A stretch of 64,000 bases of DNA from contig CAVQBG010000024.1 of NCBI GenBank assembly GCA_963710625.1, positions 52,422 to 116,421 of the forward strand, read 5' to 3'. The notes beneath the pieces were generated by a model. That model did not search any database, was not told where the DNA came from, and was given only the letters and a program-made list of their open reading frames with translations. Made by a program: the position numbers and the translations under genes. Positions 1-18,249 of the stretch are shown here, piece by piece. Position 1 is the first letter of the stretch; every line of letters starts with the position of its first letter. Source of the DNA: Ilumatobacteraceae bacterium. GTDB taxonomy: Bacteria > Actinomycetota > Acidimicrobiia > Acidimicrobiales > Ilumatobacteraceae.

Positions 1-3000
1 GTGGTTGCTGCTCGACGTTCGTACCATCGGATCGACGATGCGGTCCGACGGTTGATGGACACCGAAGTCTTCAACGACGACGCGCTGTTCGACCGCATCG
101 AGTACGTCGACTTCTACCGGTACGTCGATGTCGACCTCACCGAGATGCTCCGCTTCCTCGACGAGGAAGCGCCATGGGTGCGACCATCCGACACCGGACG
201 CTCGACGAACTGTCGGATCAATGCGGCCGGCATCCAGACGCACCTGCTCGAGCAGGGGTACCACAACTACGCCGAGCCCTACGCATGGGACGTGCGCCTG
301 GGTCACAAGCAGCGCGAGCAGGCGCTCGCCGAGCTCGACGACCGCGACGACGAGGACGAGGTCGCGGCAATGCTCGCGGAGATCGGGTACACGCCGCGAA
401 CCCGCGAGATCCTCGCCGCCTGGATCGAGGTCGGCGACGATGCGACGGCGCCGAGCCCGGCGGAGTTGCGTGTACACCTCCAGGGACTCCTACCCGCCCA
501 CGCAGTGCCCGCGGCGTTCGTGATCGTCGAGGAACTTCCGTTGACCACGAACGGCAAGCTCGATGTGGCGGCACTTCCTGCGCCGAGGCGCACACATCGG
601 TCGAGCCCGACGCTGGTCGTCGCTCCGACGTCCGAGCTCGAGCGCAGGATCGTCGAGCTCTGGGAACGTCACCTCGGTATCGACACGATCTCCGTCGACG
701 ACGACTTCTTCGCGCTCGGTGGCGACTCGCTCGCCGCGCTCGAGATGACGATGATGTTGAGCGACGCTCTCGGCCGAGACGTCTCCGAGGAGATCGTCTT
801 CTCGAACACCACGCCCAGCGCACTGGCAGCCGCGCTCGATGGACACCACGCGGCCGACCACGGGTTCGATGGTCTCGGCGCCGGCGTTGCGGTCGGGACG
901 GGTCCCGAGCCCAGCACAGGTGGTGACCCACCGCGGCTGTCCGCGGGTGAACGCTCGATGCTGTTCGAGCACCGGATGCGACCCGACGACCCTCGATACA
1001 ACCAGGGTCGCCTGTATGTCCTCGATGGGCTGATCGACCCCGAGCGGTTCCGTGCTGCGCTCGCCGACGTCATCGCCCGTCACGAGCCGCTCCACTGGAC
1101 CTTCGACGAACCCCGGAGACGGCTCACGGTCGACGACGCACTGGCCTTCACCGCCGGGGTGCTCGCCACGCAGGCAGACGTCCGCGAGGCCGCGACCGTG
1201 ATCCATCGCACGCCCTTCGAACTCGCGAGCGGCCCCCTCGTCCGTTGCGGGCTCTTCGAGGTCGACGGGACCACGGCCATCGTGCTCGCGACCCACCACA
1301 TCTCGACCGACGCCGGCTCGTTCGATCGGCTGTGGAAGGAGGCCGTCACCGCCTATCGAGGCGAGGAGCTGCCTCCGCTGCCGAGCTCGTATTCGGACCA
1401 CGCCACCTGGCAGGCGAACCGACTGGCCGCCTCGAACGACGACTACTGGCTGGCATCGATCGGCGCCGTCCCGCGGATGCAATTGCACCGTCCGTTCACG
1501 CCTGCACCGGACGGACTTCGCGACCGCGTGGCCGAGATCACCACGACCGAGTTCCGATCTGCGACCGGCACGTCGCCGTTCGCCACCGTGCTGGCCGCAC
1601 TCGCCACGGTCATGCGTCGCTACTGCGGTGCCGACGAGATCACGCTCGGCGCGCTGGTCTCGACTCGCGACCACGCGAGCGCGGAGAACCTCGTCGGCTA
1701 CTACCTCAACACCCTGCCACTGACCTTCCGTGTCGATCCGGGCGGACATCTCGCAGACCTGCGAACCCAGAGCGCGGAGACCCTGGCATCGGGACTTGCG
1801 CACCGTGTGGTGCCGTTCGCCGACATGGTGACGGGGCGGCGCAGGGCCGAGCTGCCCGAGCCCGCTCCGCAGGTGTTGGTGGCCCTGCAGGAGCTCGACG
1901 AGGTCAGCTGCGGAAGCCTCCACGGCACGCAGGAGATCCTGTTCACCGGAACGGCGGTCGCAGACGCAACCTTCTTCGTGCAGCAGCGGGGCGGAAACGT
2001 CGTGCTCGCCATCGAGCACCGCGGTTCCGAGCTCAGCGCGGAAATCGCCGACCGGCTCCTCGCCGATCTCGACACTGCGCTCACCGCGCTCGTGCGGCGC
2101 CCGGACGCGGTGGTCGGATCGATCACGTTGGACTCGCAGCACGCTGGCCGCCTCGTGGGCTCGACTCCAGCCGCTGCACCGCACGTGATGGCCCAGATCA
2201 CACGGGTCATGGGCGATCAGCCCCACGACGTCGCGATCCGGTGCGGCGACCGCTCTCTGACCTGGCAAGCGCTCGACCATGCATCGACGATGCTCGCTCA
2301 TCGCCTGGTGGCAGTTGGTGTGCGGCCGTCCGATCGCGTCGTCGTCACGCTTCCCCGATCGGTCGAACTCGTGGTCGCCATCGTCGCGGTGCTGCGCGCC
2401 GGCGCTGCCTACGTGCCCCTGGACCCGACGTATCCCACCGCCCGGAACCGCTCGATCGCACTCGCGTCGGACGCTCGGGCCGTGATCGGCGAGTTGGACG
2501 TCGACGGGTTCCAGGGCAACGGCGTCGTCGTCGATCTCGACGACCTGAGCACCGCGCAACCGGACGAGCATGGTGAGCTCCCTCCACCCGACATCGACGG
2601 TCCGGCGTACACGATCTTCACCTCCGGCTCCACCGGCGAACCGCGCGGCGTGACCGTCGGCCACCGGGAGCTCGCGATCAGCACCGCAGCGCGCTCCACG
2701 GTGTACGGCGCGAAACCCGAACGGTTCCTCGTGGTCTCGAGCGCTTCGTTCGACAGCTCGGTCGCCGGTCTGTTCTGGACGCTGACGGCGGGCGGCACGG
2801 TCGTCCTGCCGACCGACGCCGAAGTGCACGACGCCGATGCGCTCATCGACCTGTTCGCGTCAGCCGACATCACCCACACCCTGATGGTGCCGTCGCTCTA
2901 CCGGGGACTGCTCGGCCGGGCAGCGGCCGACGCCGCGTGGCCCGACCAGGTGATCGTGGCAGGAGAGGCGTGCGGACCGGACGTGCTTGCCAGCCACCTC

Positions 3001-4824
3001 GCCACGCGCCCGGGGTCGAAGCTCTCGAACGAGTACGGCCCCACCGAGGCAACGGTCTGGGCGACCGTCAGTCATCTCGACTCGGCGACACCAGGTGTGC
3101 CGATCGGTGATCCGATCCCTGGCGTGTGGACCGCCGTGGTGGACGATCGGGGAGAGCTGTGCCCCGCCGGAGTGATCGGCGAACTGCTGATCGGGGGGGA
3201 GACCGTCACCCGGGGCTACGACGGCGTCGATTCCGACCGATTCGGTGGTGCGAGCCCGCTGGGCGCAGGACGTACGTTCCTCACGGGCGACCGAGCGGCA
3301 GTGGCCGCGGGTCAGCTGTACTTCCACGGTCGGGTCGACGACCAGCTCAACGCCGGCGGGCTCCGGATCGAGCCCACCGAGATCGAGATCGCGCTCAAAG
3401 CGGTGAGCGGCGTCGAGGAGGCGATCGTGGTGGCCCGTGATCTCCGACCGCTCGACGCCCGTCTGGCGTCGACCGAGTCGGCCCGGCTCGCCGACGCGAT
3501 GCGGCGCGCAGCAGGCTCCGACGACCCGCTCGCCTCACTCGACGACGAGTTGGCCGACGATGCCCACCGCTCCCTCGTCGCTCACCTCGAGGGCGACCTC
3601 ACGGCCGTCGACCTCGACGCGCTCGACGCACATCTTTCGGCAACGTTGCCACCGACCGCCACGCCTCGCGTGATCCGGATCCACGAGCGCCTACCGAGGT
3701 CGCCCAACGGAAAACTCGACCGTGCAGCGATCACCATGCTGCCGGTCACCGCATCGAGCCGGCAGTCGCCCGTCGTCCCCGGCTCGATCGGAGAGCTCGA
3801 CGAGATCGTCGGGTTCTTCCGAGACGTCCTCGATCGAAACGATGTCGGACCGGACGACGACTTCTTCGATGCCGGCGGCGAATCGCTGCTCGCGCTCGAG
3901 TTGTTCATGCGGATCGAACAGCGCTTCGGCATCCGCCCGCGCGTCTCGGTGCTGTTCGAAGCTCGCACCCCGCGGGAGCTGACGGCCGCCCTCGGTTTCG
4001 GGGGTCTCGAACAGCGTGATGGCGCGCTGGTCCTCCGGGACGGCGGCGGCGAATCACCGCCGCTGTGGATCTGGCCGGGATCGGATGGGGCGCTCCTCAT
4101 CTTCGAACGACTCGTCGACCGGCTCGACCCTGGGCTCCGGGTGCTGGGCGTCGAGTACCCGGGGACCCGAGGCGAACGGGCGCCGTTCGACACGATCGAG
4201 GACCTCGGTCGGTACTGCCACGAAGCACTGGTCGCGGCCCAGCCGTCGGGCCCGTACCGAATGCTCGGCTACAGCACCGGAGGGCTGGTCGCCGTCGATG
4301 TTGCCCGCCGACTGCTCGAGACCGGCGAGGACGTCGACTACCTCGGCGTCATCGAAGCCGGGGTGGCAGGAGTGGCCGACCCTCGCGGCCGGGCGGCCAA
4401 GTTCGTGGACGCATGGCGGACCCGCGGTCCGCGCTTCGCCGCGGCACGACTGCGCAGCTCCACCCAGGTCCTGACCGACGAGGTGACGAAGACGATCCGG
4501 CGCTCGCTCGAAGACCTCGCGGTCGACCGGTTCGGCATCCGGCCATCCGACCGGAGGTTGTTCCTCGGTATGGAACACCACTTTCGCGCTGCGAGTCTGA
4601 GCTACCGGCCACCGACGATCGATGCCGACATCGACCTCTATCTCGGCGACGACGCCTCCGCACACTGGATCACCGCGATGACTCATGCCTGGGAATCCGT
4701 CGCAGGAGGTCGGCTCCGTGTCGTCCAGGTCGATGGTTCTCACATCCGCAACACGATGCTCCTGCCACCGCACGTCGACTCCCTCGCTGCGTCGGTCGCC
4801 GCCGACCTCGTGGACGATCGATGA
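1..4824 (+). CDS. Non-ribosomal peptide synthetase, 5'-truncated at window edge. Visible order: A-domain C-terminal part with a foreign insert, then T-C-A-T-TE
   Basis: Motifs in the ORF: LPLTTNGKLD (A10), FFALGGDSLAALE (T), HHISTDAGSF (C, HHxxxDG), YTIFTSGSTGEPRGV / NEYGPTEAT / GELLIGG / RVDDQLNAGGLRIEPTEIE / PRSPNGKLDR (A), FFDAGGESLLALE (T), GYSTGG (TE, GxSxG). Confidence 0.9.
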   Translation: MVAARRSYHRIDDAVRRLMDTEVFNDDALFDRIEYVDFYRYVDVDLTEMLRFLDEEAPWVRPSDTGRSTNCRINAAGIQTHLLEQGYHNYAEPYAWDVRLGHKQREQALAELDDRDDEDEVAAMLAEIGYTPRTREILAAWIEVGDDATAPSPAELRVHLQGLLPAHAVPAAFVIVEELPLTTNGKLDVAALPAPRRTHRSSPTLVVAPTSELERRIVELWERHLGIDTISVDDDFFALGGDSLAALEMTMMLSDALGRDVSEEIVFSNTTPSALAAALDGHHAADHGFDGLGAGVAVGTGPEPSTGGDPPRLSAGERSMLFEHRMRPDDPRYNQGRLYVLDGLIDPERFRAALADVIARHEPLHWTFDEPRRRLTVDDALAFTAGVLATQADVREAATVIHRTPFELASGPLVRCGLFEVDGTTAIVLATHHISTDAGSFDRLWKEAVTAYRGEELPPLPSSYSDHATWQANRLAASNDDYWLASIGAVPRMQLHRPFTPAPDGLRDRVAEITTTEFRSATGTSPFATVLAALATVMRRYCGADEITLGALVSTRDHASAENLVGYYLNTLPLTFRVDPGGHLADLRTQSAETLASGLAHRVVPFADMVTGRRRAELPEPAPQVLVALQELDEVSCGSLHGTQEILFTGTAVADATFFVQQRGGNVVLAIEHRGSELSAEIADRLLADLDTALTALVRRPDAVVGSITLDSQHAGRLVGSTPAAAPHVMAQITRVMGDQPHDVAIRCGDRSLTWQALDHASTMLAHRLVAVGVRPSDRVVVTLPRSVELVVAIVAVLRAGAAYVPLDPTYPTARNRSIALASDARAVIGELDVDGFQGNGVVVDLDDLSTAQPDEHGELPPPDIDGPAYTIFTSGSTGEPRGVTVGHRELAISTAARSTVYGAKPERFLVVSSASFDSSVAGLFWTLTAGGTVVLPTDAEVHDADALIDLFASADITHTLMVPSLYRGLLGRAAADAAWPDQVIVAGEACGPDVLASHLATRPGSKLSNEYGPTEATVWATVSHLDSATPGVPIGDPIPGVWTAVVDDRGELCPAGVIGELLIGGETVTRGYDGVDSDRFGGASPLGAGRTFLTGDRAAVAAGQLYFHGRVDDQLNAGGLRIEPTEIEIALKAVSGVEEAIVVARDLRPLDARLASTESARLADAMRRAAGSDDPLASLDDELADDAHRSLVAHLEGDLTAVDLDALDAHLSATLPPTATPRVIRIHERLPRSPNGKLDRAAITMLPVTASSRQSPVVPGSIGELDEIVGFFRDVLDRNDVGPDDDFFDAGGESLLALELFMRIEQRFGIRPRVSVLFEARTPRELTAALGFGGLEQRDGALVLRDGGGESPPLWIWPGSDGALLIFERLVDRLDPGLRVLGVEYPGTRGERAPFDTIEDLGRYCHEALVAAQPSGPYRMLGYSTGGLVAVDVARRLLETGEDVDYLGVIEAGVAGVADPRGRAAKFVDAWRTRGPRFAAARLRSSTQVLTDEVTKTIRRSLEDLAVDRFGIRPSDRRLFLGMEHHFRAASLSYRPPTIDADIDLYLGDDASAHWITAMTHAWESVAGGRLRVVQVDGSHIRNTMLLPPHVDSLAASVAADLVDDR

Positions 4825-5750
4825 CGCAGGGCGCCGACATCAGTGTGGTGATCCCGACGTTCAATCGGTCCCGGTCGTTGGCGCGACTGCTCGACGCGCT
4901 GGCAGACGAGGCCACCGCTGGGTGCACGGCCGAAGTGATCGTGGTCGACGACGGTTCGACCGACGACACCGAACAGGTCGTGCGACAGTGCGCGCTCGCG
5001 GTGACCTATCTCCGCCAGGCCGGGGCAGGCCCGGCGGCGGCCCGCAACACGGGCTGGCGGGCGAGCTCCGCGCCCGTCGTCGCCTTCATCGACGACGACT
5101 GCGTCCCCCGACCGGGGTGGCTCACCGACCATCTCGCAGCGTTCGAAGATCCGTGTGTCGGAGGTGTCGGTGGAACCATCGAGCCGCTCGTCGACGGATT
5201 CATCGCCGACTTCATCACCGCCGATGGCCTGGTCGATCACGGCCGTCCGCCGGGACGGGGCGCCGACGCCGATCCGACGTACCTGGTCACCGCGAATGCT
5301 GCGTTCCGCCGGGCGGCGCTCGAGGCGGCAGATGGCTTCGAGGAGGACTACCGGCTGGACCGCCCGGATCGGACCGGCCGGATCGTGGCCGGGGAGGACG
5401 TCGACCTGTGCTGGCGGATCGTCGAGGCGGGCTGGGCACTGAAACGATCGCCGGGCGCGATCGTCGCACACGACCATCGGGTCGCCCTCGACGCCCTGAT
5501 GCGGACGTACTTCCGTCACGGACGGGCGCGTCGTGAACTCGGCCGGCGACATCATGGTCGTGGAGCGGCCGATGGGATGCGACGGGCGACGTCGACGCGT
5601 CACTGGATCGACCGAGTCCGGCGATATCGAAACCGCGGTGAGCGATCCTGGGGCCGCGTCGCCGGGTTCGTTCTCCTGCGGCTGGGCGCGCTGATCGCCT
5701 ACGGGGGCGGTGTGCTCCGGTCGTTCAGCGACGATCGGTCAGCCCGCTGA
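4821..5750 (+). CDS. Family 2 glycosyltransferase
   Basis: ISVVIPTFNRS...VIVVDDGSTDDT...AFIDDDCVP. The ATG overlaps the NRPS stop (ATGA), so the two are translationally coupled. Confidence 0.85.
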   Translation: MTQGADISVVIPTFNRSRSLARLLDALADEATAGCTAEVIVVDDGSTDDTEQVVRQCALAVTYLRQAGAGPAAARNTGWRASSAPVVAFIDDDCVPRPGWLTDHLAAFEDPCVGGVGGTIEPLVDGFIADFITADGLVDHGRPPGRGADADPTYLVTANAAFRRAALEAADGFEEDYRLDRPDRTGRIVAGEDVDLCWRIVEAGWALKRSPGAIVAHDHRVALDALMRTYFRHGRARRELGRRHHGRGAADGMRRATSTRHWIDRVRRYRNRGERSWGRVAGFVLLRLGALIAYGGGVLRSFSDDRSAR

Positions 5751-6651
5751 GGCCGACGAGGAATCCGGCGCCCCACGGCAGGTGCATCGCCGGCAGCACC
5801 GGTGCCACCAACAGGCCGCTCGGACCGGCGGACGCCGCCTGACGCGCGGTCTCCGCCGCCAGAATGGCGAGGTAGGTTGACAACACGTGACGCCGCCACG
5901 GCGAGCACAACCCGAGCACGAGCAGCGGACCCGCGAGTTGGCGTGGAGCGAGCGACGAGGGGTGGCGCCGCACGGTCGCCGCTCGCGAGCTCCCGTACCT
6001 CCAGAACTGGGTGGCCACGGCTCGCAGCGTCCGGCGCGGCACATACGTGCTCCTGATCGAAGGGTCGAACCACACCCCTCCGCGGCGCGCCATGCGAACG
6101 GCGAACTCCGCGTCTTCGTTCACCCCCACGTCGGTTGCGTAGCCGCCGACGGCGACGGCGTCGGCGGTGCGATAGGCCCCCAGGTAGACGGTGTCGACCC
6201 AGCCTGGCGCTCCTCCGCTGTGGAAACGCGCGGGTCCGGCGCCCAGCGGCGAGGCCATCGCGAGGGCGATCGCGGCCGGCAGACCGCTCGCCGCCACCGG
6301 TGACATCGCGCCACCCACCATCGCAGCACCGGTACGGTCGAGTGCCTCCACACACCGCTCGACGTAGTCGACCGCGATCGTGCAATGCCCGTCGACCCGA
6401 ACGATCACCTCGCCGACGGCCTCTGCGATCCCCACGTTGAGCCCGGACGCCTGCACCCGGTTCGGGTTGTCGAGCACCGTCGCACCACCGACCGCCGCAA
6501 GCTCTCGTGTGCGGTCATCGGACCGACCGTCGACGACCAGCACCTCGATCACATTCGGATACGTCTGCTCTCGGACCGCCGACAGGGTCTGCTCGATGTG
6601 TGCTTCTTCCCGGTAGGTGGGGATGACGACGGTGACCGTCGGCCCACTCAC
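5725..6651 (-). CDS. Family 2 glycosyltransferase
   Basis: VTVVIPTYREEAHIEQTL...VLVVDGRSDDRT. The GTG start overlaps the upstream stop (GTGA). Confidence 0.85.
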   Translation of the reverse strand: MSGPTVTVVIPTYREEAHIEQTLSAVREQTYPNVIEVLVVDGRSDDRTRELAAVGGATVLDNPNRVQASGLNVGIAEAVGEVIVRVDGHCTIAVDYVERCVEALDRTGAAMVGGAMSPVAASGLPAAIALAMASPLGAGPARFHSGGAPGWVDTVYLGAYRTADAVAVGGYATDVGVNEDAEFAVRMARRGGVWFDPSIRSTYVPRRTLRAVATQFWRYGSSRAATVRRHPSSLAPRQLAGPLLVLGLCSPWRRHVLSTYLAILAAETARQAASAGPSGLLVAPVLPAMHLPWGAGFLVGLSGLTDRR

Positions 6652-7967: not shown

Positions 7968-7970
7968 AGG

Positions 7971-10639: not shown

Positions 10640-11727
10640 TGATCCCCTACGGTCGACAGTCGATCGACGACGAGGACGTTGCCGCCGTCGTCGAGGTGCT
10701 CCGTGGCGACTGGCTCACGCAGGGTCCGACGGTCGAGCGATTCGAACGTGCGCTCGCCGATCGAGTGGCCGCCCGCCACGCCGTGGCTTTCTCCTCCGGA
10801 ACCGCAGCGCTCCACGGTGCTGCTGCTGCGGCAGGATTCGGCGACGGCGACGTGGTGGTGACCTCACCGCTCACGTTCATGGCGACAGCGAACTGCGTCC
10901 GCTACGTGGGCGCCCAGCCGGGACTGGTCGACATCGACCCGGCGACGTGGAACCTCGACCTCTCCCAGGTGCCCAACGACATCGCAGGCGTGATCCCCGT
11001 CCACTACGGCGGGCTGCCGGTGGCGCTGGACCGTTGGCACCCGTCCAGCCGGACCGTCGTGATCGAGGACGCTGCGCACGCGCTGGGAGCCTCGACACCG
11101 TCCGGGCCGGTGGGCAGTTGTGGCGAGAGCGCCATGACCTGCTTCTCGCTGCACCCCGTCAAGCCGATCACCACCGGCGAGGGCGGGATCGTCACCACGA
11201 ACGACGACGAACTCGCCGACCGACTTCGCCGCTTCCGCACCCATGGGATCGTCCGCCGCCCCGACCTCGGGGGTTGGGCGTACGAGATCTCGGACATCGG
11301 ATACAACTACCGCCTCACCGACATCCAGGCAGCACTCGGTCTGTCGCAACTGCGCCGGCTCGACCGGTTCATCGACCGGCGAAACGAGATCGCCGAGCAC
11401 TACCGGGAGTTGCTGGCCGACCTCCCGATCGGGCTGCCGCCCGCCGCGCCGACCGGCTACCGGCACGGCTATCACCTCTTCGCGGTTCGCGTCCCGGATC
11501 GCCGGGAGGTCTACGACCGCCTGCGCGACGCAGGAATCGCAACCCAGGTCCACTACGTGCCGATCCATCACCATCCGGTGAGCGCGGACATCGAGCTGCC
11601 ACCCGGTGGCCTGCCGGCGTGCGACGCGTTGTACGAGGGGCTGCTCAGCCTGCCGATGTTCCCGACGCTCACCGATGACGATGTCCGCCACGTCGCCGAA
11701 CAGGTGCGAAGGAGCCTCGATGCCTGA
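10639..11727 (+). CDS. pseC: UDP-4-amino-4,6-dideoxy-N-acetyl-beta-L-altrosamine transaminase, PseC (DegT family)
   Basis: MIPYGRQSIDDEDVAAVVEVLRGDWLTQGPTVERFE. The ATG overlaps the pseB stop. Confidence 0.85.
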   Translation: MIPYGRQSIDDEDVAAVVEVLRGDWLTQGPTVERFERALADRVAARHAVAFSSGTAALHGAAAAAGFGDGDVVVTSPLTFMATANCVRYVGAQPGLVDIDPATWNLDLSQVPNDIAGVIPVHYGGLPVALDRWHPSSRTVVIEDAAHALGASTPSGPVGSCGESAMTCFSLHPVKPITTGEGGIVTTNDDELADRLRRFRTHGIVRRPDLGGWAYEISDIGYNYRLTDIQAALGLSQLRRLDRFIDRRNEIAEHYRELLADLPIGLPPAAPTGYRHGYHLFAVRVPDRREVYDRLRDAGIATQVHYVPIHHHPVSADIELPPGGLPACDALYEGLLSLPMFPTLTDDDVRHVAEQVRRSLDA

Positions 11728-13144
11728 GGGTCGTCATGTGGTCGTGTGCGCCGACGCCTCCCCGGATCTCGGCCTCGGTCACGTCATGCGCTCGCTCGTG
11801 CTCGCTCACGAGCTCACGGCGGCCGGGTGTGCCACCACGATCTGTGGAGTCGGGGTTCCCGCCGACCTGCTGGGGTCGACCGACCTGGTCACCCGGCGAG
11901 ACGCCGACGATGTCGACACGGTGATCGGACTGCGCCCCGACTTCGTCGTCGTGGACGGTGACCACTTCACCGCCGACTTCTTCGCCGCTCTCGATGCTCA
12001 CGGGATCGGGTACGCCGTCATCGACGACAACGGTGACACCGCTGCCGGCCGGCCGGTCGTGGTCGTCAACCAGAATCCCCATGCGAAACCGGCGATGTAC
12101 GACCACCTCGAGGGGAATCCTCTCCTGCTGTTGGGCGTGCGATTCGCGCTGCTCAGGCCCGAGATCGACGAGATCGCTCGGCAGGCACCGGCGCGTCGAG
12201 CGGGAACCGTCTTCGTGGCGTTCGGCGGCAGCGATCCCCGCCGACTGACCGAGCCCGTCGCAGTCCGACTGGCATCGGAGGGGCTCACCGTCCGGGTCGC
12301 CGTCGGCCCCGTGCACCCGGAGCGAGCAGAACTCGTCTCCAGGTTCGACGGAGAAGCAGGTGTCACGGTCACCGAACCCGAGGACTACGCCACCGAGCTC
12401 GCCACCGCGAGCGTGGCGGTGCTCGCTGCCGGCTCGAGCCTGCTGGAAGCGGCAGCCCTCGACACGCCGGCCGTCGCCGTGATCGTGTCCGAGAACCAAC
12501 GACGACTGGCGGCCGCTTCTCTCGACCAGGGCGTGGTGTTCAGGGTGTTCGACGCCGACGAGGAGTTCCTCCGCGAACTGGGCACCGACGTGGCCACCGC
12601 GCTCGGCTCGACGCTCCGCCCCGATCGGCTGCGCGTGCCCGGTTCCGGCGCCCGACTCGTTGCTGCATCAGTCACAGATCGGATGTCGTCGCCCGTACGG
12701 CTCCGGCCGGCGTCGATCGACGATGCTGCCTTCGTGTTCTCACTTCGGACCGATGCCGACGTCCAGCAACAGTCGTTCGGAGCTGCACCGACCTGGGAGC
12801 AACACCTCGAATGGTTCCGGGCGACCATCGACGATCCTCGTCGTCGACTGATGATCGTCGAGCGCGCATCGGACCCGATCGGACAGATCCGGCTCGACGA
12901 CGTCGGCGACCACGAGGTCGTGTCACTGGCAATCGCTGAACCGGCGCGGGGACGAGGCCTCGGGCGACGCGCACTCGGCGCAGCGACTGCGCTCGCCGTC
13001 GGTGACCTCGTCGCCCACATCCGGCCGGACAATGCACGATCGCTCGCGGCGTTCTCGAGTGCCGGGTTCGTCGTGGAGTCGGAGAACGCTGACGAGGTCG
13101 TGATGCGCCGATCCTGCGGCCCGAGAACGGAGACGGCGCCGTGA
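11720..13144 (+). CDS. pseGH: Fused PseG (UDP-sugar hydrolase) and PseH (GNAT N-acetyltransferase)
   Basis: N-terminus VVVCADASPDLGLGHVMRSLVLAHEL (PseG-type). C-terminus is GNAT: RLRPASIDDAAFVFSLR...ARGRGLGRRAL. Confidence 0.8.
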   Translation: MPEGRHVVVCADASPDLGLGHVMRSLVLAHELTAAGCATTICGVGVPADLLGSTDLVTRRDADDVDTVIGLRPDFVVVDGDHFTADFFAALDAHGIGYAVIDDNGDTAAGRPVVVVNQNPHAKPAMYDHLEGNPLLLLGVRFALLRPEIDEIARQAPARRAGTVFVAFGGSDPRRLTEPVAVRLASEGLTVRVAVGPVHPERAELVSRFDGEAGVTVTEPEDYATELATASVAVLAAGSSLLEAAALDTPAVAVIVSENQRRLAAASLDQGVVFRVFDADEEFLRELGTDVATALGSTLRPDRLRVPGSGARLVAASVTDRMSSPVRLRPASIDDAAFVFSLRTDADVQQQSFGAAPTWEQHLEWFRATIDDPRRRLMIVERASDPIGQIRLDDVGDHEVVSLAIAEPARGRGLGRRALGAATALAVGDLVAHIRPDNARSLAAFSSAGFVVESENADEVVMRRSCGPRTETAP

Positions 13145-14199
13145 CCTCGATGCACATCGCCGGCCGCGCGATCGGCGTCGACGAACCTCCCTACGTGATC
13201 GCCGAGATCTCGGCGAATCACCGCGGCTCACTCACAGCAGCCATCGAGTTGGTGCACGCCGCTGCAGAAGCGGGCGCTGACGCCGTCAAGCTCCAGCACT
13301 ACACAGCCGACACGATCACCGTTCGCTCAGATCATCCCGATTTCCTCGTCACCGGTGGGACGTTGTGGGATGGCCGTCAACTCGCCGACCTCTACACCGA
13401 GGCGATGACGCCGTGGGAGTGGACCGACGATCTTGCAGTCGCTGCGACGAACGCCGGCATCACCTGGTTCTCGACACCGTTCGACCGCACTGCCGCCGAC
13501 TTCCTCGCGCGTCACGACGTCCCTGCGTTCAAGATCGCCTCGTTCGAGATCGTCGACCTGCCCTTGATCCGGTACGTGGCGGGACTCGGCAAGCCGGTGA
13601 TCATCTCGACCGGCATGGCGTCGTTGGAGGAGATCGACGCAGCGGTCGGCGCAGCGGCGAACACCGAGACGGCGGTCCTGCGCTGCAACTCGGGCTATCC
13701 CGCGCTCCCGGCCGAGATGGACCTGCGAGCGATCCCGGTGATGCGCGATCGCTGGAAGCTCCCGATCGGCCTGTCCGATCACACACTCGGCTCCACGTCG
13801 GCGATCGCGGCGGTCACGCTCGGCGCGTGCATCGTCGAGAAACATCTCACGCTCCGACGATCCGACGGAGGTCCGGATGCGGAGTTCTCGGCGGAACCGC
13901 AGGAGTTCGCTGCGCTCGTGTCGTCGCTGCGCGAGGCCCACGCCGCCCTCGGAGAGGCTCGATTCGGTCCATCCGAGCGCGAGGTCGCGAACCTGGCGTT
14001 CCGCCGGTCGCTGCGGGCCGCCCGGCCGATCGCGGCCGGGACGGCCCTGACGCCCGATGACGTCCGGTCGATGCGTCCCGCCGGCGGACTCGCCCCGGAC
14101 GATCTCGATCTCGTGATCGGTTCGGTGGCATCGACCGACCTGGTCGTCGGCGACCCGATCACGTGGGACGATCTCGTGCCGTTCGAGGGGGAACGATGA
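13141..14199 (+). CDS. pseI: Pseudaminic acid synthase (NeuB family), PseI
   Basis: PPYVIAEISANHRGSL...KLQHYTADT...FKIASFEIVDLPLI, plus a C-terminal SAF-like region. Confidence 0.85.
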   Translation: MTSMHIAGRAIGVDEPPYVIAEISANHRGSLTAAIELVHAAAEAGADAVKLQHYTADTITVRSDHPDFLVTGGTLWDGRQLADLYTEAMTPWEWTDDLAVAATNAGITWFSTPFDRTAADFLARHDVPAFKIASFEIVDLPLIRYVAGLGKPVIISTGMASLEEIDAAVGAAANTETAVLRCNSGYPALPAEMDLRAIPVMRDRWKLPIGLSDHTLGSTSAIAAVTLGACIVEKHLTLRRSDGGPDAEFSAEPQEFAALVSSLREAHAALGEARFGPSEREVANLAFRRSLRAARPIAAGTALTPDDVRSMRPAGGLAPDDLDLVIGSVASTDLVVGDPITWDDLVPFEGER

Positions 14200-15503
14200 C
14201 ATCGCTGTGTGTGATCCCGGCCCGGGGCGGGAGCCAGCGGATTCCGCGCAAGAACATCCGGCCGTTCGCCGGTGTCCCGATCCTCGCCAGAACCATCGAC
14301 ATCGTGATCGAGTCCGGTGTCGCCGACCGCATCGTCGTGTCGACCGATGACGAGGAGATCGCCGAGATCGCACGAGCGGCCGGCGCCGAGGTGCCGTTCC
14401 TCCGCGCCGCCGACCTCGCCGGCGACGATGTCCCGACGATCCCGGTGGTCGCCGACACGCTCGCCAGGCTGTTCGACGACGAGCGCGGTGGCGTCGACAC
14501 GACATGGGTCGTGTACCCGACCGCCGTGCTGATCGAACCCGGGGACCTGGTTCGCGCCCACGACGACTTCGTCGCATCGGGCGCGGCGGTGGCCATGTCG
14601 GTCGTCGAGTCGCCCGGACCGATCGAGCGCGCCTGGCGACGGACCGTTCGCGGTCGTGGGCGGATGTGGTCGCCCGATCACGTCGAGACACGGACCCAGG
14701 ATCTCGAGCCGGCCTTCTTCGACGCTGGGCAGTTCTATGTCGCCGGCACCGACTTCTGGCTCAGCGGAGCGACGCTCGCCGACGCCGATCCACTGCTGGT
14801 GTCGTTGCCCCGCGAGCGCGCGATCGACATCGACACGATCGACGACTGGCGTTTCGCGGAGTCGGTCTTCGCCGGCAGGGCCGCTCGCAGCGAAGCCGAC
14901 CGCCTCGAAGCACTCTGGTCGGGCGAGTTCGGCGACCGCTACGTCGACCGCAATCGTGACGCCGGCGATCCGCGCGAGCCGTTCTGGACCCACATCGTCG
15001 AACTGACCGATCCGAGTTCGGTCCTCGAAGTCGGCTGCAGCACCGGCAACAACCTGCGATGGCTCGACGACGGGTCTCGACACGTCGTCGGCGTCGATGT
15101 CAACCGCGGCGCGCTCGACGAACTCGCCGAGCGACTTCCGCGGGTCGAATCCCACCTCGCGTCTGCTCGGAGACTCCCGTTCGACGACCAACGATTCGAT
15201 CTGGTGTTCACGGCCGGCGTGCTCATCCATCAGCCCGACGAGTCGCTCGACGAGGTGCTGACAGAGATGCGACGGTGTTCGCGGCGGTGGATCATGATGG
15301 CCGAGTACTTCGCGCCGTCTCGCGAGGAGATCCACTATCGGGGGATCGAAGGAGCGCTGTTCCGGCGCGATTACGGCGCCCTGATCGCCGAACTCCACGG
15401 CGACCTCACCCTGCGCCAGTCGGGCTTCCTGGGCCGCGACGAAGGGTGGGACGACGTCACCTGGTGGTTGTTCGAACGGCAGCACCCGCAACGCGACGAG
15501 TGA
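14196..15503 (+). CDS. pseF: Pseudaminic acid cytidylyltransferase PseF fused to a Pse-associated SAM methyltransferase domain
   Basis: N-terminus CVIPARGGSQRIPRKNIRPFAGVPIL. C-terminus LWSGEFGDRYVDRN...VLEVGCSTGNNLRWL...FDLVFTAGVLIHQ. ATGA overlap with pseI. Confidence 0.8.
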   Translation: MTSLCVIPARGGSQRIPRKNIRPFAGVPILARTIDIVIESGVADRIVVSTDDEEIAEIARAAGAEVPFLRAADLAGDDVPTIPVVADTLARLFDDERGGVDTTWVVYPTAVLIEPGDLVRAHDDFVASGAAVAMSVVESPGPIERAWRRTVRGRGRMWSPDHVETRTQDLEPAFFDAGQFYVAGTDFWLSGATLADADPLLVSLPRERAIDIDTIDDWRFAESVFAGRAARSEADRLEALWSGEFGDRYVDRNRDAGDPREPFWTHIVELTDPSSVLEVGCSTGNNLRWLDDGSRHVVGVDVNRGALDELAERLPRVESHLASARRLPFDDQRFDLVFTAGVLIHQPDESLDEVLTEMRRCSRRWIMMAEYFAPSREEIHYRGIEGALFRRDYGALIAELHGDLTLRQSGFLGRDEGWDDVTWWLFERQHPQRDE

Positions 15504-15529
15504 CCTCGATGCGAGTGGCATCGGAGACG

Positions 15530-16489
15530 TCAACCGTCAGCCGCCTCCAACACGTCACGAAGCTGTTGCGAGTCGAGCAGATCGACGTAGTCGACACTCT
15601 GGAGGGCCCCGCCGAGATAGAACGCAACCGACGACGAGTGGTGATAGACGGTGAGGTGATCACTGATCTCCGCCAGGACGCCGACGAAGACCTCGGCCGG
15701 TATCCACGAGCCCGGCAGGCTCACCACGCCGTCGCGATCGACCGGGGCACCGTCGTGTGGGTGGGGCTTGTGGAACACGACGTCGGCGCCGGCCTGTGCC
15801 TCGTCGAGCACGTGGTCGGGAGTGCGTCCCCACATCGCCAGGACCAGCGCGACGCGGCCCAGTCGTTGCGTCGGCTCACCGAGCTGCCTCATGACGAGCT
15901 GGTGCCAGGTGTCGGCTCCGAAACGCAGTTCGTCGACGAGTCCGGGGAAACCGACCGCCTTGTGCGCAGTACGGGGGTTGAGCCGACGGTAGACGTCCGG
16001 CCGGCTGACCATGACGAGGTCGGTCTTGCGGCCCTCGCCGAACTCCCATCCGCAGCCTGTCGTGACGACCAGAACCTTCCACTTCAGCTTCCGCATCCCG
16101 CGTAGCGACATCTCGGGATTGCTCCGATAGGTGCCGATCCCCTCCTCGAAGAGCACCAGCCGTTCCGTCCGAAGGGGGGCGAAGAGCCGGTATCGGCCAA
16201 CGCGATCGTCCTCGATGAACAGCGTGTCGTACCGGTTGCGAGTGAACTCCTCGATCGCCGCGTCGTCGTCGAGGTTCCACGACACCGACGAGAAGAGCCG
16301 ACCAGAGCCGCTGGAGGACATGAACTGGGCGAACTCGTCGACACCGTCGATCGAGGACGTCAGGACGTGCAACCGGCTCTCGACGATTCCGAAGTGTCGG
16401 ACGATCGACGCACAGTTCAACACCTGGAGCGGCTTGCTGCACACGAACACCGACCGTCCGAAGTCGATGCCGGCAGCCCGATCAGCCAT
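15530..16489 (-). CDS. Hypothetical protein, GT52 (sialyltransferase-like)-related; candidate pseudaminyltransferase
   Basis: N-terminal VFVCSKPLQVLNCASIV resembles the GT52 'C-TPLQ-L' start motif (from memory). Sits within the pse locus. Start chosen at the internal ATG (MADRAAG). Confidence 0.5.
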   Translation of the reverse strand: MADRAAGIDFGRSVFVCSKPLQVLNCASIVRHFGIVESRLHVLTSSIDGVDEFAQFMSSSGSGRLFSSVSWNLDDDAAIEEFTRNRYDTLFIEDDRVGRYRLFAPLRTERLVLFEEGIGTYRSNPEMSLRGMRKLKWKVLVVTTGCGWEFGEGRKTDLVMVSRPDVYRRLNPRTAHKAVGFPGLVDELRFGADTWHQLVMRQLGEPTQRLGRVALVLAMWGRTPDHVLDEAQAGADVVFHKPHPHDGAPVDRDGVVSLPGSWIPAEVFVGVLAEISDHLTVYHHSSSVAFYLGGALQSVDYVDLLDSQQLRDVLEAADG

Positions 16490-16557: not shown

Positions 16558-18249
16558 GTGGGTTGGCACGTGGCACACCAGCTGCGGCCGTTCCTGCGAC
16601 GCCCGCGGCTCGACCTGTTGCTCATCGCCGGCGTGTCCGCGGTCGCCGGGCTGTTCGAGGCTGCTGTCCTCATCCTGGTGGTCAACGCTGCGGTCGCGAT
16701 CGCTGATGGCACGTCGGCGTCGCCGATCGACCTCCCGATCATCGACGTCGACGCGTCGATCGGCCAGGTGCTGTGGTGCGCTGCAGGGCTGACGATCGCC
16801 GTCGCGTTGGCGAACACGTTCGTGTCCTGGTTGGCAGCCCGTGTGGGTACGGAGGTGTTGGACACGTCCAGGCACCGCACCATCGAGGCGTTCCTCGGGG
16901 CGTCCTGGAACAGACAGTCCGCAGAGCGCCAGGGCGCAATCCAGGAGACGGCGACGACACTGGCGTTCCAGTCGTCATCGCTCACGATGACCATGATCGC
17001 CGGTTTGTCGGCCGGGCTCGCGCTGGCGGCCCTGTTCCTCGCCGCGGTCTTCATCGACCCGATCGTCACCGTCATCGTGCTGGTGTTCGGCGTCGCACTG
17101 TTCGCCGTCTTCCGGCCGGTCAGCCGACTCACGCGCCGTTACTCGAGCGTGTACGTCGAGGCGAACAGCGGCTACACCGAGGACGTGGCGCGGATGGCTG
17201 CCATGTCGATGGAGCTGCGAGTGTTCGGCGTCGAGTCGCAGATCCTCGCAGCGCTCGACCGCTCGGCCGCCACGGTGAACGAGAGCCTCCGTCGCACTCG
17301 ATTCGTTGCCCGCCTCGGCACGACGTTGTATCGAGACGTCGCAGTGCTGTTCCTCGTCGCTGCGGTGGCGGCGCTGAATCTCGCGGGTGCCGACCGAATC
17401 GTCGAGGTCGGTGCCGTGGCGTTGCTGATCGTGCGCAGCTTGGGTTACGCGACGCTCGTGCAGTCCGCAGCCCAGCAGGTCAGCGAGCTGTCACCCAACC
17501 TCGCAACCCTCCAGAGGCGCCTCGAACGGCTGGAGTCGAGTCGGGAACAGGTCGGTTCGAACGCGGTCTCGTCCTTCGAGAAGATCGAACTCGTCGGCGT
17601 CAGTTACTCCTACGACGACCGGACTCCGGCGATCCGGGATGTCGACCTGTCGATCCGTCGCGGCGAGGTGCTCGGCGTCATCGGACCATCCGGCAGCGGC
17701 AAGTCGACCCTCCTGCAGATCCTGCTGCGGCTTCGGATCCCGGATGCAGGAGCGGTCCTGGTCGACGGCGTCGACTACGAGACGATCGACCCGACGTCGT
17801 GGTCGCATCTCGTGGCGGTCGTGCCCCAGGAACCCCAATTGATCGAGGCGTCGATCTCCGACAACATCGCGTTCCTCCGGCCGAGCGTGACGCGCGACCG
17901 GGCCGAACGAGCAGCCGAAGCCGCGCACGTCGCCGCCGACGTGCGCGAACTGCCCAACGGCTTCGACACGCTGCTCGGGCCACGCGGAACGGGCCTGTCC
18001 GGGGGACAGAAGCAACGTGTTGCGTTCGCTCGGGCGCTGGCTGGCGATCCGCAGCTGTTGATCCTCGACGAGCCGACCAGCGCACTCGACGGCGAGTCCG
18101 AACGCCGCATTCGCGACACGATCACCGAACTCAAAGGCCACGTCACGCTCGTGATCGTGGCACACCGTTTGTCGACGCTCGACGTGTGCGACCGCGTGAT
18201 CTCGATCGAGACCGGCCGGGTCGAGCCCACCGTCCCCCCAGCTGGCTGA
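16558..18249 (+). CDS. ABC exporter, fused permease/ATPase (MsbA-like)
   Basis: Six N-terminal TM helices. GPSGSGKSTLLQ (Walker A), LSGGQKQRVAFARAL (signature), LLILDEPTSALD (Walker B). Confidence 0.9.
   Translation: MGWHVAHQLRPFLRRPRLDLLLIAGVSAVAGLFEAAVLILVVNAAVAIADGTSASPIDLPIIDVDASIGQVLWCAAGLTIAVALANTFVSWLAARVGTEVLDTSRHRTIEAFLGASWNRQSAERQGAIQETATTLAFQSSSLTMTMIAGLSAGLALAALFLAAVFIDPIVTVIVLVFGVALFAVFRPVSRLTRRYSSVYVEANSGYTEDVARMAAMSMELRVFGVESQILAALDRSAATVNESLRRTRFVARLGTTLYRDVAVLFLVAAVAALNLAGADRIVEVGAVALLIVRSLGYATLVQSAAQQVSELSPNLATLQRRLERLESSREQVGSNAVSSFEKIELVGVSYSYDDRTPAIRDVDLSIRRGEVLGVIGPSGSGKSTLLQILLRLRIPDAGAVLVDGVDYETIDPTSWSHLVAVVPQEPQLIEASISDNIAFLRPSVTRDRAERAAEAAHVAADVRELPNGFDTLLGPRGTGLSGGQKQRVAFARALAGDPQLLILDEPTSALDGESERRIRDTITELKGHVTLVIVAHRLSTLDVCDRVISIETGRVEPTVPPAG

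Follow-up and report, generated by a model that had tools for sequence, protein, structure and literature searches.

The biosynthesis of CMP-pseudaminic acid (CMP-Pse) in Campylobacter jejuni and Helicobacter pylori employs PseB, PseC, PseH, PseG, PseI, and PseF, and Pse-containing polymers have been reported in Kribbella. PglK/Wzk-type ABC flippases act on Und-PP-linked glycans in the N-glycosylation of C. jejuni and the O-antigen of H. pylori. The chemistry of non-ribosomal peptide synthetases (NRPSs) meets envelope glycans in the D-alanylation of teichoic acids by DltABCD, and clusters of NRPSs and glycosyltransferases (GTs) make surface glycolipopeptides, the mycobacterial glycopeptidolipids (GPLs). 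In lactococcal wall polysaccharide loci, the DUF2142 proteins WpsI and WpsJ are a putative polymerase and GT-C-type transferase (PMC12599335, PMC9746298), and the teichulosonic acids of actinomycetes, such as the Kdn polymer of S. coelicolor (locus SCO4873-4882), are phosphate-free wall glycopolymers derived from ulosonic acids (PMC13011467).

In the present study, we analyzed positions 1-18249 of a 64,000-nt stretch of DNA (the window), which an earlier note had described as one ~18-kb block joining an NRPS to Pse and glycan-export genes. Profile searches and direct reading located all of the genes listed in that note; however, the locus consists of five transcription units. We consider it probable that two systems lie side by side, an NRPS metabolite cluster and an Und-P-dependent locus for a Pse-containing wall glycan, and infer that their products are independent; a residual link, such as a GT2 glycosylating the peptide, may exist.

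The NRPS gene occupies positions 1-4824 of the plus strand and is open at its 5' end, the window containing 1607 codons, or the 3' 60%, of a bimodular enzyme of 2650 aa that extends 3.1 kb further upstream and the architecture of which, C-A[PP-loop insert]-T-C-A-T-TE, was obtained from a contig 99.7% identical to the window (L085/L088). The Pfam domains within the window (A C-terminal part, T, C, A, T, and TE) correspond to the tail of the insert (nt 1 to ~342), the C-terminal subdomain of A1 (~397-558), T1 (~643-837), C2 (~952-2130), A2 (~2212-3720), and T2 and the TE (~4060-4749), all on the plus strand, with the motifs HHISTDA, GGDSL, and GYSTG intact. The prediction of A-domain specificity returned Asn/Asp-like and His codes, and that of A2, DSALIAEVWK, exactly matches a published His signature (PMC12283262). 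Since DLT[KL]VGEVGK (Asx type) and the His code DSA[LM]IAEVWK are both kept in all five lineages, the enzymes appear to make one product family whether or not Pse genes are neighbors. The insert in A1 is closest to N-acetyl-sugar amidotransferases of the PP-loop WbuX family (E 1e-17), which includes Campylobacter PseA, and is present in every lineage, with or without pse.

On the L085/L088 contig, the genes upstream of the NRPS encode HupE_UreJ_2, ACAD-like, PhyH, A, T, and GT1 proteins. The orthologues in L089, L091, and L092 are flanked by stand-alone A and T genes, HupE_UreJ_2, and usually ACAD-like/OCD genes, while L090 retains just HupE_UreJ_2 and OCD of that core; the membrane protein HupE_UreJ_2, being conserved, is suggestive of metal binding. 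In L089 and L090, the NRPS is followed by a stop/start-coupled ABC exporter (58% identity between the two, 29-34% to the window ABC protein), a type of gene absent from the window and from the compared parts of the L095 and L115 loci. The natural-product cluster would extend from a point about 10 kb 5' of the window to the end of the NRPS gene at 4824. In the proposed pathway, the stand-alone A enzyme would load the stand-alone carrier protein, the prolyl-PCP-dehydrogenase-like flavoenzyme would act on the tethered unit, probably to give a pyrrole-2-carboxyl starter, and the NRPS would join this starter to an Asn/Asp-type residue, through the A domain with the amidotransferase-like insert, and then to histidine, before the TE releases a small acyl-dipeptide for tailoring by the PhyH hydroxylase and GT1. 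A similar set of stand-alone A enzyme, carrier protein, and flavoenzyme is found in the pyrrolyl-carrier cassettes RedM/RedO/RedW, PigI/PigG/PigA, and PltF/PltL/PltE; the best matches of the ACAD-like flavoenzyme are the L-prolyl-PCP dehydrogenases RedW (355 bits) and PigA (314 bits), and an ornithine cyclodeaminase gene lies close by in three of the orthologous clusters. However, the flavoenzyme scores are below equivalog cutoffs (355 vs 650), the stand-alone A code, DQFYLGVQCK, is without the Val236/Gln239 typical of Pro codes, and the starter would enter an NRPS (C-A-T-C-A-T-TE) instead of a PKS or halogenase. The full cluster, with a starter cassette, tailoring GT1, and hydroxylase, has an architecture typical of a diffusible metabolite.

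Immediately downstream, the NRPS TGA (4822-4824) overlaps the ATG (4821) of the GT2 gene g2 (4821-5750, plus strand; PF00535, 102 bits), read directly as '...GATCGATGACGCAG', and the ATGA coupling reported previously for the TE-terminated NRPS is therefore real. This 4-nt overlap is kept in all five contigs of the window clade (L001-L004 and L085), which indicates that the NRPS and g2 are co-transcribed there. In contrast, L095 and L115 retain the NRPS but lack g2, and carry at the junction a different GT2 gene and a UDP-GlcNAc 2-epimerase gene convergent to the NRPS; in these lineages, the NRPS and the glycan genes run toward each other, without co-transcription. Outside the window clade, the junction is convergent and not operonic, and the ATGA coupling is a trait derived within the clade of the window. 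The nearest homologue of g2 outside the clade (49% identity) belongs to an operon of the composition PGT-GT2-GT2-GT4, where no NRPS gene is present.

The second GT2, the polyprenyl-phosphate transferase, and the DUF2142 protein listed in the note were found as one divergent minus-strand operon, with the GT2 gene g3 (5725-6651; PF00535, 79.6 bits) as its last gene. g3 and g2 are convergent with a 26-nt overlap and share 24% identity, and g3 follows the glycosylphosphotransferase gene in both L095 and L115 (73-74% identity). The predicted initiating polyprenyl-phosphate glycosylphosphotransferase (PGT; Bac_transf; 6648-7967, minus strand) has N-terminal hydrophobic segments, matches PF02397 at 199.7 bits and TIGR03025 at 296.6 bits (cutoff 295.55), and is 67-71% identical to its counterparts in L095 and L115. 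The polytopic DUF2142 protein (7971-9539/9599, minus strand, with GTG 9539 as the likely true start; PF09913, 118.9 bits; also a weak match to Wzy_C) has at least nine hydrophobic segments and may act outside the cytoplasm as a polymerase or transferase of the glycan.

On the plus strand, the pse operon encodes the six activities of the C. jejuni/H. pylori route in pathway order. PseB, an inverting UDP-GlcNAc 4,6-dehydratase (9578/9653-10639, with GTG 9653 as the likely true start; TIGR03589, 496.5 bits vs 407.75), PseI, the pseudaminic acid synthase (13141-14199; TIGR03586, 400.5 vs 340.25), and PseF, the CMP-Pse synthetase (14196-15503; TIGR03584, 216.2 vs 205.7), exceed their NCBIfam equivalog cutoffs, and the aminotransferase PseC (10639-11727) matches TIGR03588 over its full length at 422.3 bits (E 1.6e-126), within 1.2 bits of the cutoff of 423.5. 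Unlike in C. jejuni and H. pylori, PseF is fused to a Pse-associated SAM methyltransferase (TIGR03587, 130.1 vs 112.05) and the PseG-like UDP-sugar hydrolase (11720-13144; TIGR03590, E 2e-37, 129 bits vs 153.6) to a C-terminal GNAT acyltransferase domain (residues 327-451) in the position of PseH. Since this domain is weakly PseH-like (TIGR03585, 28.6 bits vs 93.1), the N-acyl group is uncertain. The gene order and the presence of start/stop overlaps are as described in the note, the overlaps being, in order, TGATG, 8 nt, GTGA, and ATGA, but its PseG and PseH assignments fall below curated cutoffs. No flagellin or Maf-type transferase gene accompanies the operon, which, in contrast to the C. 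jejuni and H. pylori genes, belongs to a locus for a polyprenyl-phosphate glycan in a genome of high GC content that is probably Acidimicrobiia-like.

Regarding g11, previously called GT52-like, the protein is real, though shorter than the longest ORF (15530-16489, minus strand; 319 aa, as in its homologues). Within the family, 26 of 30 members match the polysialyltransferase Pfam model and 11 of 30 GT52, the window protein lying under the gathering scores. Its AlphaFold model (pLDDT 92.7) is closest to sialyltransferase-type folds, namely, polysialyltransferase 5WCN (GT38; E 3e-9), Photobacterium sialyltransferase 4R9V, and Neisseria NST 2YK7 (GT52), and it shares the GT-B fold and motifs with GT38, GT52, and GT80 enzymes at a sequence identity of 12-15%. 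The invariant residues EEG 115-117 and HP 243-244 fit the D/E-D/E-G and HP motifs known from bacterial transferases for sialic acid and Pse/Leg (PMC5420450); the Tannerella Pse/Leg transferases are longer, at about 445 aa. This protein is a candidate CMP-Pse transferase, with CMP-Pse presumably as the donor. The MsbA-type exporter of the note, g12 (16558-18249, plus strand), is a type IV ABC half-transporter (TMD+NBD; PF00005) with the best NCBIfam matches MsbA_rel (241.8 bits), HepA (238.9), and PglK (183), all under their cutoffs (1000 for PglK), and PDB matches to ABCB1 and ABCB10. It could serve as the flippase or exporter for the lipid-linked glycan.

Gene context was compared in seven NRPS lineages out of about 40 full-length homologues, with about 35 other family members, the sister P0123 among them, outside the comparison. 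Four (L089-L092; NRPS 45-55% identical) have no pse, PGT, DUF2142, or GT2 gene after the NRPS, L115 combines the NRPS with the glycan block but lacks the pse operon, and both NRPS and Pse/glycan genes occur in two of the seven readable lineages, the window clade and L095; co-conservation of the NRPS with pse was not found beyond these two, such that, in the lineages compared, the genes do not occur together outside the immediate clade, but do so within it. L115, in which the order is ABC / g11-DUF2142-PGT-g3 (identities to the window of 66, 59, 57, 71, and 74% for ABC, g11, DUF2142, PGT, and g3, respectively), indicates that pse is a separable 5.9-kb cassette. g12 marks the outer edge of the glycan block that is conserved. 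With a 66%-identical counterpart adjoining the g11 homologue in L115, it travels with this block, not with the NRPS. A neighbor-joining tree (no bootstrap values) grouped L095 and L115 with L002 and the window clade; since the glycan-adjacent NRPSs form a single clade, their juxtaposition would have arisen once, in the clade ancestor, and then been inherited with local rearrangement. The adjacency survives rearrangements in three sub-lineages, with NRPS identity down to 58-60%, and this persistence could reflect selection for linkage.

These contexts bear on the claim that the NRPS provides an aminoacyl or peptidyl substituent for the Pse glycan. Covalent attachment of the NRPS product, or of an aminoacyl unit, to the lipid-linked glycan, with the TE offloading onto a sugar hydroxyl or amine, would agree with the adjacency in three sub-lineages, the translational coupling in one, the similarity of the A1 insert to sugar amidotransferases, and a natural amino-acid-substituted Pse, the N-acetylglutamine derivative on C. 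jejuni flagellin (PMC3068675). We nevertheless regard it as very improbable, and the claim as not borne out, because the NRPS lies at the heart of a cluster of diffusible-metabolite type that is conserved separately, four of the seven lineages are without a Pse or glycan neighbor and L115 is without pse, the association has a single origin, the NRPS is convergent in L095 and L115, and the insert is present irrespective of pse. No enzyme able to link the peptide to the glycan was identified among the genes of the locus, and titles and abstracts of literature containing both "pseudaminic acid" and "nonribosomal peptide" give no hint of a combined pathway. A looser connection, in which the products are separate but g2 glycosylates the peptide and/or g12 replaces a lost cognate exporter, is less remote, though still unlikely. 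The conserved NRPS-g2 overlap is consistent with it, as is the best NCBIfam match of g2 to MftF (197 bits), a GT2 that glycosylates a small molecule; since the window clade lost the L089/L090-type exporter, the ABC protein of the glycan block could have taken over export. The PhyH hydroxylase, the tailoring GT1, and a His code compatible with beta-OH-His also fit, and the glycosylated beta-hydroxy-His of bleomycin offers a model for g2 acting on the peptide. However, L095 and L115 keep the NRPS without g2, the closest outside homologue of which is in an NRPS-free PGT operon, its MftF score is under the cutoff of 280 and g3 matches the same model, and g12 is 11.7 kb distant, with three oppositely oriented units in between, and in L115 shows synteny with g11 and DUF2142.

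A different question is whether the glycan block, itself independent of the NRPS, serves protein O-/N-glycosylation, with the DUF2142 protein as the oligosaccharyltransferase, a PglK-like ABC flippase, and Pse-capped S-layer, pilin, or surface proteins as products. The PglK similarity of g12 and the Pse-capped protein O-glycans of Tannerella, made with sialyltransferase-motif transferases (PMC5420450), point in this direction, and profile searches identified neither a wall ligase of the LCP type nor Wzx, Wzy, or Wzz at the locus. We consider this improbable because the PglK score is far under its cutoff, no flagellin, pilin, or S-layer gene was present among the ORFs scanned in the remaining 46 kb (several stretches of which were outside the scan), and the literature ties DUF2142 to wall polysaccharide polymerization or transfer, not protein glycosylation (PMC12599335, PMC9746298).

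Within the preferred reading of two neighboring systems, the evidence supports the lipid-linked glycan with Pse that the note proposed: the region encodes a pathway for such a glycan, primed on polyprenyl phosphate and with an ABC exporter of its own, in which Pse is made and very probably incorporated. PseB, C, (H), G, I, and F would yield CMP-Pse, the PGT would prime undecaprenyl phosphate, the GT2s and g11 would assemble an oligosaccharide with Pse at the cytoplasmic side of the membrane, g12 would flip it, and the DUF2142 protein would polymerize it or transfer it to a wall acceptor. Neither an acceptor nor a wall ligase was identified for this pathway, which counts against the reading.

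Among described systems, the Dlt pathway and GPLs are the nearest precedents for a link between NRPSs and envelope glycans, and TE offloading here would be analogous in spirit to Dlt; however, no DltB/DltD-like MBOAT or transferase is present at the locus, and the NRPS is multimodular and TE-terminated, with its own tailoring genes, and is not tied to the glycan genes by comparative genomics. As in the PglK/Wzk route, a PGT and cytoplasmic GTs occur together with an ABC exporter in which TMD and NBD are fused, and Wzx and Wzy are absent, but g12 is far under the PglK and MsbA equivalog cutoffs and the final transferase would be the DUF2142 protein rather than PglB or WaaL. As in the lactococcal and streptococcal WpsI/WpsJ loci, DUF2142 is accompanied by GT2s and a lipid-carrier-priming enzyme, with a proposed role in extracytoplasmic polymerization or transfer (PMC12599335, PMC9746298); the sequences are related only through the Pfam family, the flippase is an ABC half-transporter instead of a Wzx-like protein, and the sugars include Pse, without rhamnan genes. 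By analogy with the ulosonic acid polymers of other actinomycetes, the end product would most likely belong to the class of the teichulosonic acids.

Regarding the proposal in the earlier note that window 1-18249 encodes a single hybrid NRPS/pseudaminic acid (Pse) glycan pathway, the Pse-glycan part held, whereas the coupling to the NRPS failed on comparative contexts and a neighbor-joining (NJ) tree. All of the genes listed for this region were present according to gene calling, Pfam/NCBIfam searches, and junction reading; since the window has a GC content of ~69%, genes were called by third-position GC and frame plots, and their starts were set by hand. The region does not form the one block that had been described, but is divided into five transcription units of alternating orientation. 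The NRPS (1-4824, plus strand, with its frame already open at base 1) is followed by the GT2 glycosyltransferase gene g2 (4821-5750, plus), and the ATGA overlap between them was read directly in the sequence. A minus-strand operon then carries DUF2142 (7971-9539/9599), the polyprenyl-phosphate glycosylphosphotransferase PGT (6648-7967), and the second GT2 gene g3 (5725-6651), and is followed by the plus-strand pse operon, the sialyltransferase-like gene g11 on the minus strand, and the ABC half-transporter gene g12 (16558-18249, plus). A scan for sigma-70 promoters and terminators gave no informative signal in this 69% GC DNA.

The pse operon comprises pseB (9578/9653-10639), pseC (10639-11727), pseG fused to a GNAT domain (11720-13144), pseI (13141-14199), and pseF fused to a methylase domain (14196-15503), and the overlapping start and stop codons noted previously were confirmed by direct reading (TGATG at pseB/pseC, an 8-nt overlap at pseC/pseG, GTGA at pseG/pseI, and ATGA at pseI/pseF). 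PseB, the inverting UDP-GlcNAc 4,6-dehydratase (TIGR03589, 496.5 bits, cutoff 407.75), the PseI synthase (TIGR03586, 400.5 bits, cutoff 340.25), the PseF cytidylyltransferase (TIGR03584, 216.2 bits, cutoff 205.7), and the Pse-associated methylase domain (130.1 bits, cutoff 112.05) all scored above their cutoffs. The predicted PseC aminotransferase reached 422.3 bits against a cutoff of 423.5 in a full-length alignment (TIGR03588, E 1.6e-126), and this assignment is supported by the position of the gene between PseB and PseG. The putative PseG UDP-sugar hydrolase scored 129.3 bits against a cutoff of 153.55 (TIGR03590, E 2e-37), and its fused GNAT domain was weakly PseH-like (TIGR03585, 28.6 bits against 93.1). 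The 5.9-kb operon lies exactly between DUF2142 and g11 and is a separable cassette because a related locus, L115, has the glycan core without pse. The PseF-methyltransferase fusion is variable within the window's clade (L002 16344-17060; L001 19412-20120): in L002, PseF has 234 aa and the methylase is missing ahead of g11, and the PseG/GNAT region also differs, with a gap at 13793-14294.

The g11 product itself had no Pfam match, scoring 13.5 bits for PF07388 against a gathering score of 23.3. Its homologues are 319 aa long, and the start was therefore set at ATG 16489. In an alignment of 30 members, however, 26 matched the alpha-2,8-polysialyltransferase Pfam family (best E 3.7e-9) and 11 matched GT52 (reaching E 2e-5). 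The AlphaFold model (pLDDT 92.7) predicts a GT-B fold resembling solved sialyltransferases, with the polysialyltransferase 5WCN as the top PDB match in Foldseek (E 3.3e-9), followed by 4R9V, a Photobacterium sialyltransferase (E 1.3e-6), and 2YK7, the Neisseria NST of GT52 (E 1.4e-6). E115-E116-G117 and H243-P244 are invariant across the 30 homologues and correspond to the D/E-D/E-G and HP motifs common to bacterial sialyltransferases and the Tannerella transferases for Pse and Leg (PMC5420450). The label "GT52-like" given to this gene is thus fair in view of the fold, the motifs, and the family-level matches, and the predicted sialyltransferase-like fold combined with these motifs makes g11 a good candidate for the CMP-Pse transferase. 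Homologues with 38-43% identity are also found in the Gammaproteobacteria Halomonas and Aidingimonas (P0280 and P0285), such that this candidate Pse-transferase family crosses phyla; Pfam contains no dedicated model for it.

Among the remaining glycan genes, PGT scored 296.6 bits for TIGR03025 (cutoff 295.55) and 199.7 bits for PF02397 (Bac_transf), and the DUF2142 protein scored 118.9 bits for PF09913 (cutoff 30.1), with at least nine hydrophobic segments by hydropathy. The g12 product is a fused TMD-NBD type IV exporter, with the NBD at residues 360-508, approximately six hydrophobic segments N-terminal to it, and PDB matches to ABCB10 covering residues 74-555. The "MsbA-type" designation is accurate for this architecture, but not as an equivalog assignment, since all scores fell below the NCBIfam cutoffs (MsbA_rel, 241.8 against 780; MsbA, 223 against 602; PglK, 183 against 1000). 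The nearest homologue of g2 outside the clade (49%) lies inside a PGT-GT2-GT2-GT4 operon without an NRPS, which places g2 with lipid-linked glycan assembly; a recent duplication of g3 was ruled out as its origin by an identity of 24%. A scan of a genome collection with the GT2 alignment, the back-translated motifs of which were generic, yielded at least 80 loci (L005-L084), and among the matches listed all were distant GT2s, most with an identity of 41% or less. DUF2142 was rejected as a marker of Pse loci because pse genes are absent beside its more distant homologues with 33-38% identity (L097-L114), which likewise lack an NRPS neighbour.

The DNA missing upstream of the window was taken from a metagenome-assembly contig (L085/L088), which matches the window at 99.7% identity across 15.7 kb; an exact look-up gave no record for the window's own GT2, and the contig was found via the GT2 cluster member P0121. 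The full NRPS has 2650 aa in the Pfam order C-A-T-C-A-T-TE, with intact and colinear motifs (HHCVTDA and HHISTDA in the C domains, LGGDSL in T, GYSTG in TE, and NGKLD). Upstream of it, L088 3184-9944 encodes a HupE_UreJ_2 membrane protein, an acyl-CoA-dehydrogenase-like protein, a PhyH dioxygenase, a stand-alone adenylation enzyme, an 82-aa carrier protein, and a divergent macrolide-type GT1. The best NCBIfam matches of the dehydrogenase-like gene were L-prolyl-PCP dehydrogenases (RedW, 355 bits, cutoff 650; PigA, 314 bits, cutoff 500); a trio of adjacent A, PCP, and dehydrogenase-like genes, as expected for a RedM/O/W-type pyrrolyl-PCP cassette, is present, although the dehydrogenase scores below the cutoffs and none of the A codes (DQFYLGVQCK, DQFYVFAQCK, and DILYLGVACK) has the Val236/Gln239 that Pro codes commonly share. 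Specificity codes were obtained by mapping onto a GrsA reference sequence; the mapping was anchored on conserved motifs and reproduced DAWTIAAICK. The module 1 code DLTLVGEVGK is of the Asn/Asp type (compare DLTKIGEVGK and DLTKVGHVGK; PMC12283262), and the module 2 code DSALIAEVWK exactly matches a published His signature and is compatible with beta-hydroxy-His. This architecture is consistent with a tailored small-peptide natural product, probably pyrrolyl-Asx-His, and the conserved HupE/UreJ-type protein together with the His residue suggests that the product may bind metal.

A protein search returned ~40 full-length homologues of the NRPS (~39-56% identity, 89-100% coverage, mostly at least 93%), which, where sources were named, came from Acidimicrobiales or Actinomycetota MAGs. 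These ~40 members represent a widespread and so far uncharacterised cluster family with Asx and His codes, the conserved parts of which are HupE_UreJ_2, the prolyl-PCP-dehydrogenase-like enzyme, the stand-alone A and T, and GT1; ornithine cyclodeaminase, PhyH, or P450 is often added, and some members have an extra methyltransferase domain (~3000-3170 aa).

The first A domain is interrupted between its core and C-terminal subdomain by an insert of ~255 aa (NRPS residues ~903-1157; L088 ~12710-13470), the last ~115 residues of which are encoded by window nt 1-~342. The insert carries the PP-loop SGGKDS, and its best family was the N-acetyl-sugar amidotransferases (TIGR03573, E 1.2e-17, under the cutoff), with weak similarity also to QueC and nitrile synthetase; it may act on the Asx side chain by amidation, amidination, or nitrilation. 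A survey of interrupted A domains in 2020 did not mention an insert of the PP-loop type (PMC8341866). We considered the insert as a specific link between the NRPS and Pse; however, it is kept in five of the five NRPS lineages examined, whatever their Pse neighbours, and is therefore intrinsic to the NRPS family and no evidence for such a link.

The relationship between the NRPS and the glycan genes was assessed in seven lineages in all. On the NRPS side, we analyzed, out of the ~40 family members, the contexts of four homologues (L089-L092), and these four keep both specificity codes. In L089 and L090 (55 and 53% identity), the first codon of an ABC exporter gene overlaps the stop codon of the NRPS, and unrelated housekeeping genes come next; in L091 and L092 (45 and 48%), unrelated genes or a P450 lie after the NRPS. 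The stand-alone A and T are retained together with HupE_UreJ_2 in L089, L091, and L092, in most cases along with the dehydrogenase or ornithine cyclodeaminase, while L090 retains only HupE_UreJ_2 and the cyclodeaminase of this core. Pfam and tblastn searches detected no pse, PGT, DUF2142, or GT2 homologues after the NRPS in any of the four. On the opposite, HupE end of the L089 cluster, glycan-type genes are also found (1-2051), namely a small PGT, a GT4, and a hexapeptide acyltransferase that is stop/start-coupled to HupE_UreJ_2.

On the glycan side, a metagenome scan anchored on DUF2142 and the look-up of a 59%-identical g11 homologue led to L095 and L115. L095 carries pseC and pseB in reverse orientation, forward DUF2142, DUF2142', PGT, and g3, a reverse UDP-GlcNAc 2-epimerase, a forward GT2'', and a reverse NRPS (identities: NRPS module 2, 58%; DUF2142, 58%; PGT, 67%; PseB, 82%); the NRPS is adjacent yet convergent, g2 is absent, and there is no coupling. 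Its second, divergent DUF2142 paralogue (3488-5356), between DUF2142 and PGT, forms a pair reminiscent of the lactococcal WpsI/WpsJ pair (polymerase plus transferase). The order in L115 is a reverse ABC gene, forward g11, DUF2142, PGT, and g3, a reverse epimerase, a forward GT2, and a reverse NRPS (ABC, 66%; g11, 59%; DUF2142, 57%; PGT, 71%; g3, 74%; NRPS module 2, 60%), with no pse operon anywhere within the 21-kb locus. Judging from these alignments, the ABC exporter, g11, DUF2142, PGT, and g3 together constitute a conserved glycan core, and gene content at the NRPS junction differs between lineages. The loci are modular in that the pse cassette, glycan core, and junction genes vary independently.

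In an NJ tree of the shared NRPS module-2 region (46 sequences, no bootstrap), the window's clade, including L002, together with L095 and L115 formed one clade nested in the NRPS family, and L089 and L090 took the outgroup position. This single clade of glycan-adjacent NRPSs argues that the adjacency arose once and was then inherited, with no independent recurrence such as a functional partnership would predict. The 4-nt NRPS/g2 overlap is kept throughout the window's clade (L001-L004 and L085, at least 78% nucleotide identity), and ATGA coupling occurs only there. We also considered whether an insertion of the glycan/Pse block had separated the NRPS from its cognate exporter g12. This was ruled out because g12 has only 29-34% identity to the L089 and L090 exporters, against 58% between those two and 43-71% (56-71% leaving out GT1) for the further common cluster genes aligned between L088 and L089; it is also countered by the 66% identity of g12 to the ABC gene beside g11 and DUF2142 in L115. 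A search for signatures of mobility or insertion found only chance-level short matches as direct or inverted repeats at the boundaries, no Rfam match at gathering thresholds, and no discontinuity in GC or GC3.

Taken together, the evidence favours two ordinary systems lying side by side and so spares genome mining a false lead. Co-conservation of the NRPS with the pse and glycan genes was absent in four of the seven lineages (L089-L092), and L115 has no pse; a recurrent or stable operonic linkage is likewise countered by the single NJ clade and by the convergent junctions of L095 and L115 with different genes. No candidate for an enzyme joining a peptide to the glycan was recognised among the annotated genes, and titles and abstracts of literature containing both "pseudaminic acid" and "nonribosomal peptide" hinted at no combined pathway. 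Because the overlapping NRPS and g2 are predicted to be co-transcribed in the window's clade, this clade lacks an exporter of the L089/L090 type, the best family match of g2 is the small-molecule glycosyltransferase MftF (197 bits, under the cutoff), and the adjacency outlasted rearrangements, we regard it as unlikely rather than negligible that g2 and/or the ABC transporter have been partially captured to serve the NRPS peptide, and on the same grounds we regard a covalent NRPS-Pse-glycan hybrid as very improbable.

It also appears very improbable that the juxtaposition is now functional in the window's clade, with the pyrrolyl-Asx-His peptide attached to or glycosylated by the Pse-glycan machinery, for example via the ATGA-coupled GT2. 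If this were true, the product would be a peptide-decorated or peptide-anchored Pse envelope glycoconjugate from an NRPS with a sugar-amidotransferase-like (WbuX-family) domain, for which we know of no precedent. A hybrid would represent a new bacterial envelope decoration, with NRPS chemistry applied to a glycan that contains a nonulosonic acid.

The other 46 kb of the window is housekeeping among the ORFs scanned, which included no flagellin, pilin, or S-layer gene as a potential acceptor. An apparent LipB-LipA fusion in one ORF (40818-42893, minus), which pairs the catalytic domain of a LipB-type lipoyl(octanoyl) transferase with a lipoyl synthase domain of the radical-SAM type, adjoins the genes for 2-oxoacid dehydrogenase E2 and E3. 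Components of an SOS mutasome cassette are also present, namely a DnaE-like Pol III alpha with PHP, polymerase, HhH, and OB domains (21334-24816, minus) and, beyond a fatty-acid desaturase and a response regulator, an ImuB-like protein of the IMS family (27684-29324, minus). A VWA_CoxE, DUF5682, and DUF5691 protein cluster occupies 32376-39347 (minus).

With the NRPS cluster and the glycan locus regarded as neighbours, the latter may be read as a pathway of its own. PseB, C, (H), G, I, and F would produce CMP-Pse, the methylase may modify the Pse product, and PGT would prime undecaprenyl phosphate, on which g2, g3, and the sialyltransferase-like g11 would extend a lipid-linked oligosaccharide. 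PglK and Wzk are ABC flippases for lipid-linked glycans, and the ABC half-transporter may flip the oligosaccharide in the same fashion. The DUF2142 protein would then polymerise it or transfer it beyond the membrane, as proposed for the lactococcal DUF2142 proteins WpsI and WpsJ in polymerisation and transfer outside the membrane (PMC12599335, PMC9746298). The end product is likely a wall glycopolymer of the teichulosonic type, built from ulosonic acids and free of phosphate, and the locus would provide a clean and complete case of a wall glycan that contains Pse and depends on DUF2142 and ABC proteins, in a poorly studied high-GC lineage that is probably Acidimicrobiia. Pse-containing polymers of the teichulosonic type occur in Kribbella. 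A locus for a wall polymer of this type has been documented in S. coelicolor (PMC13011467).
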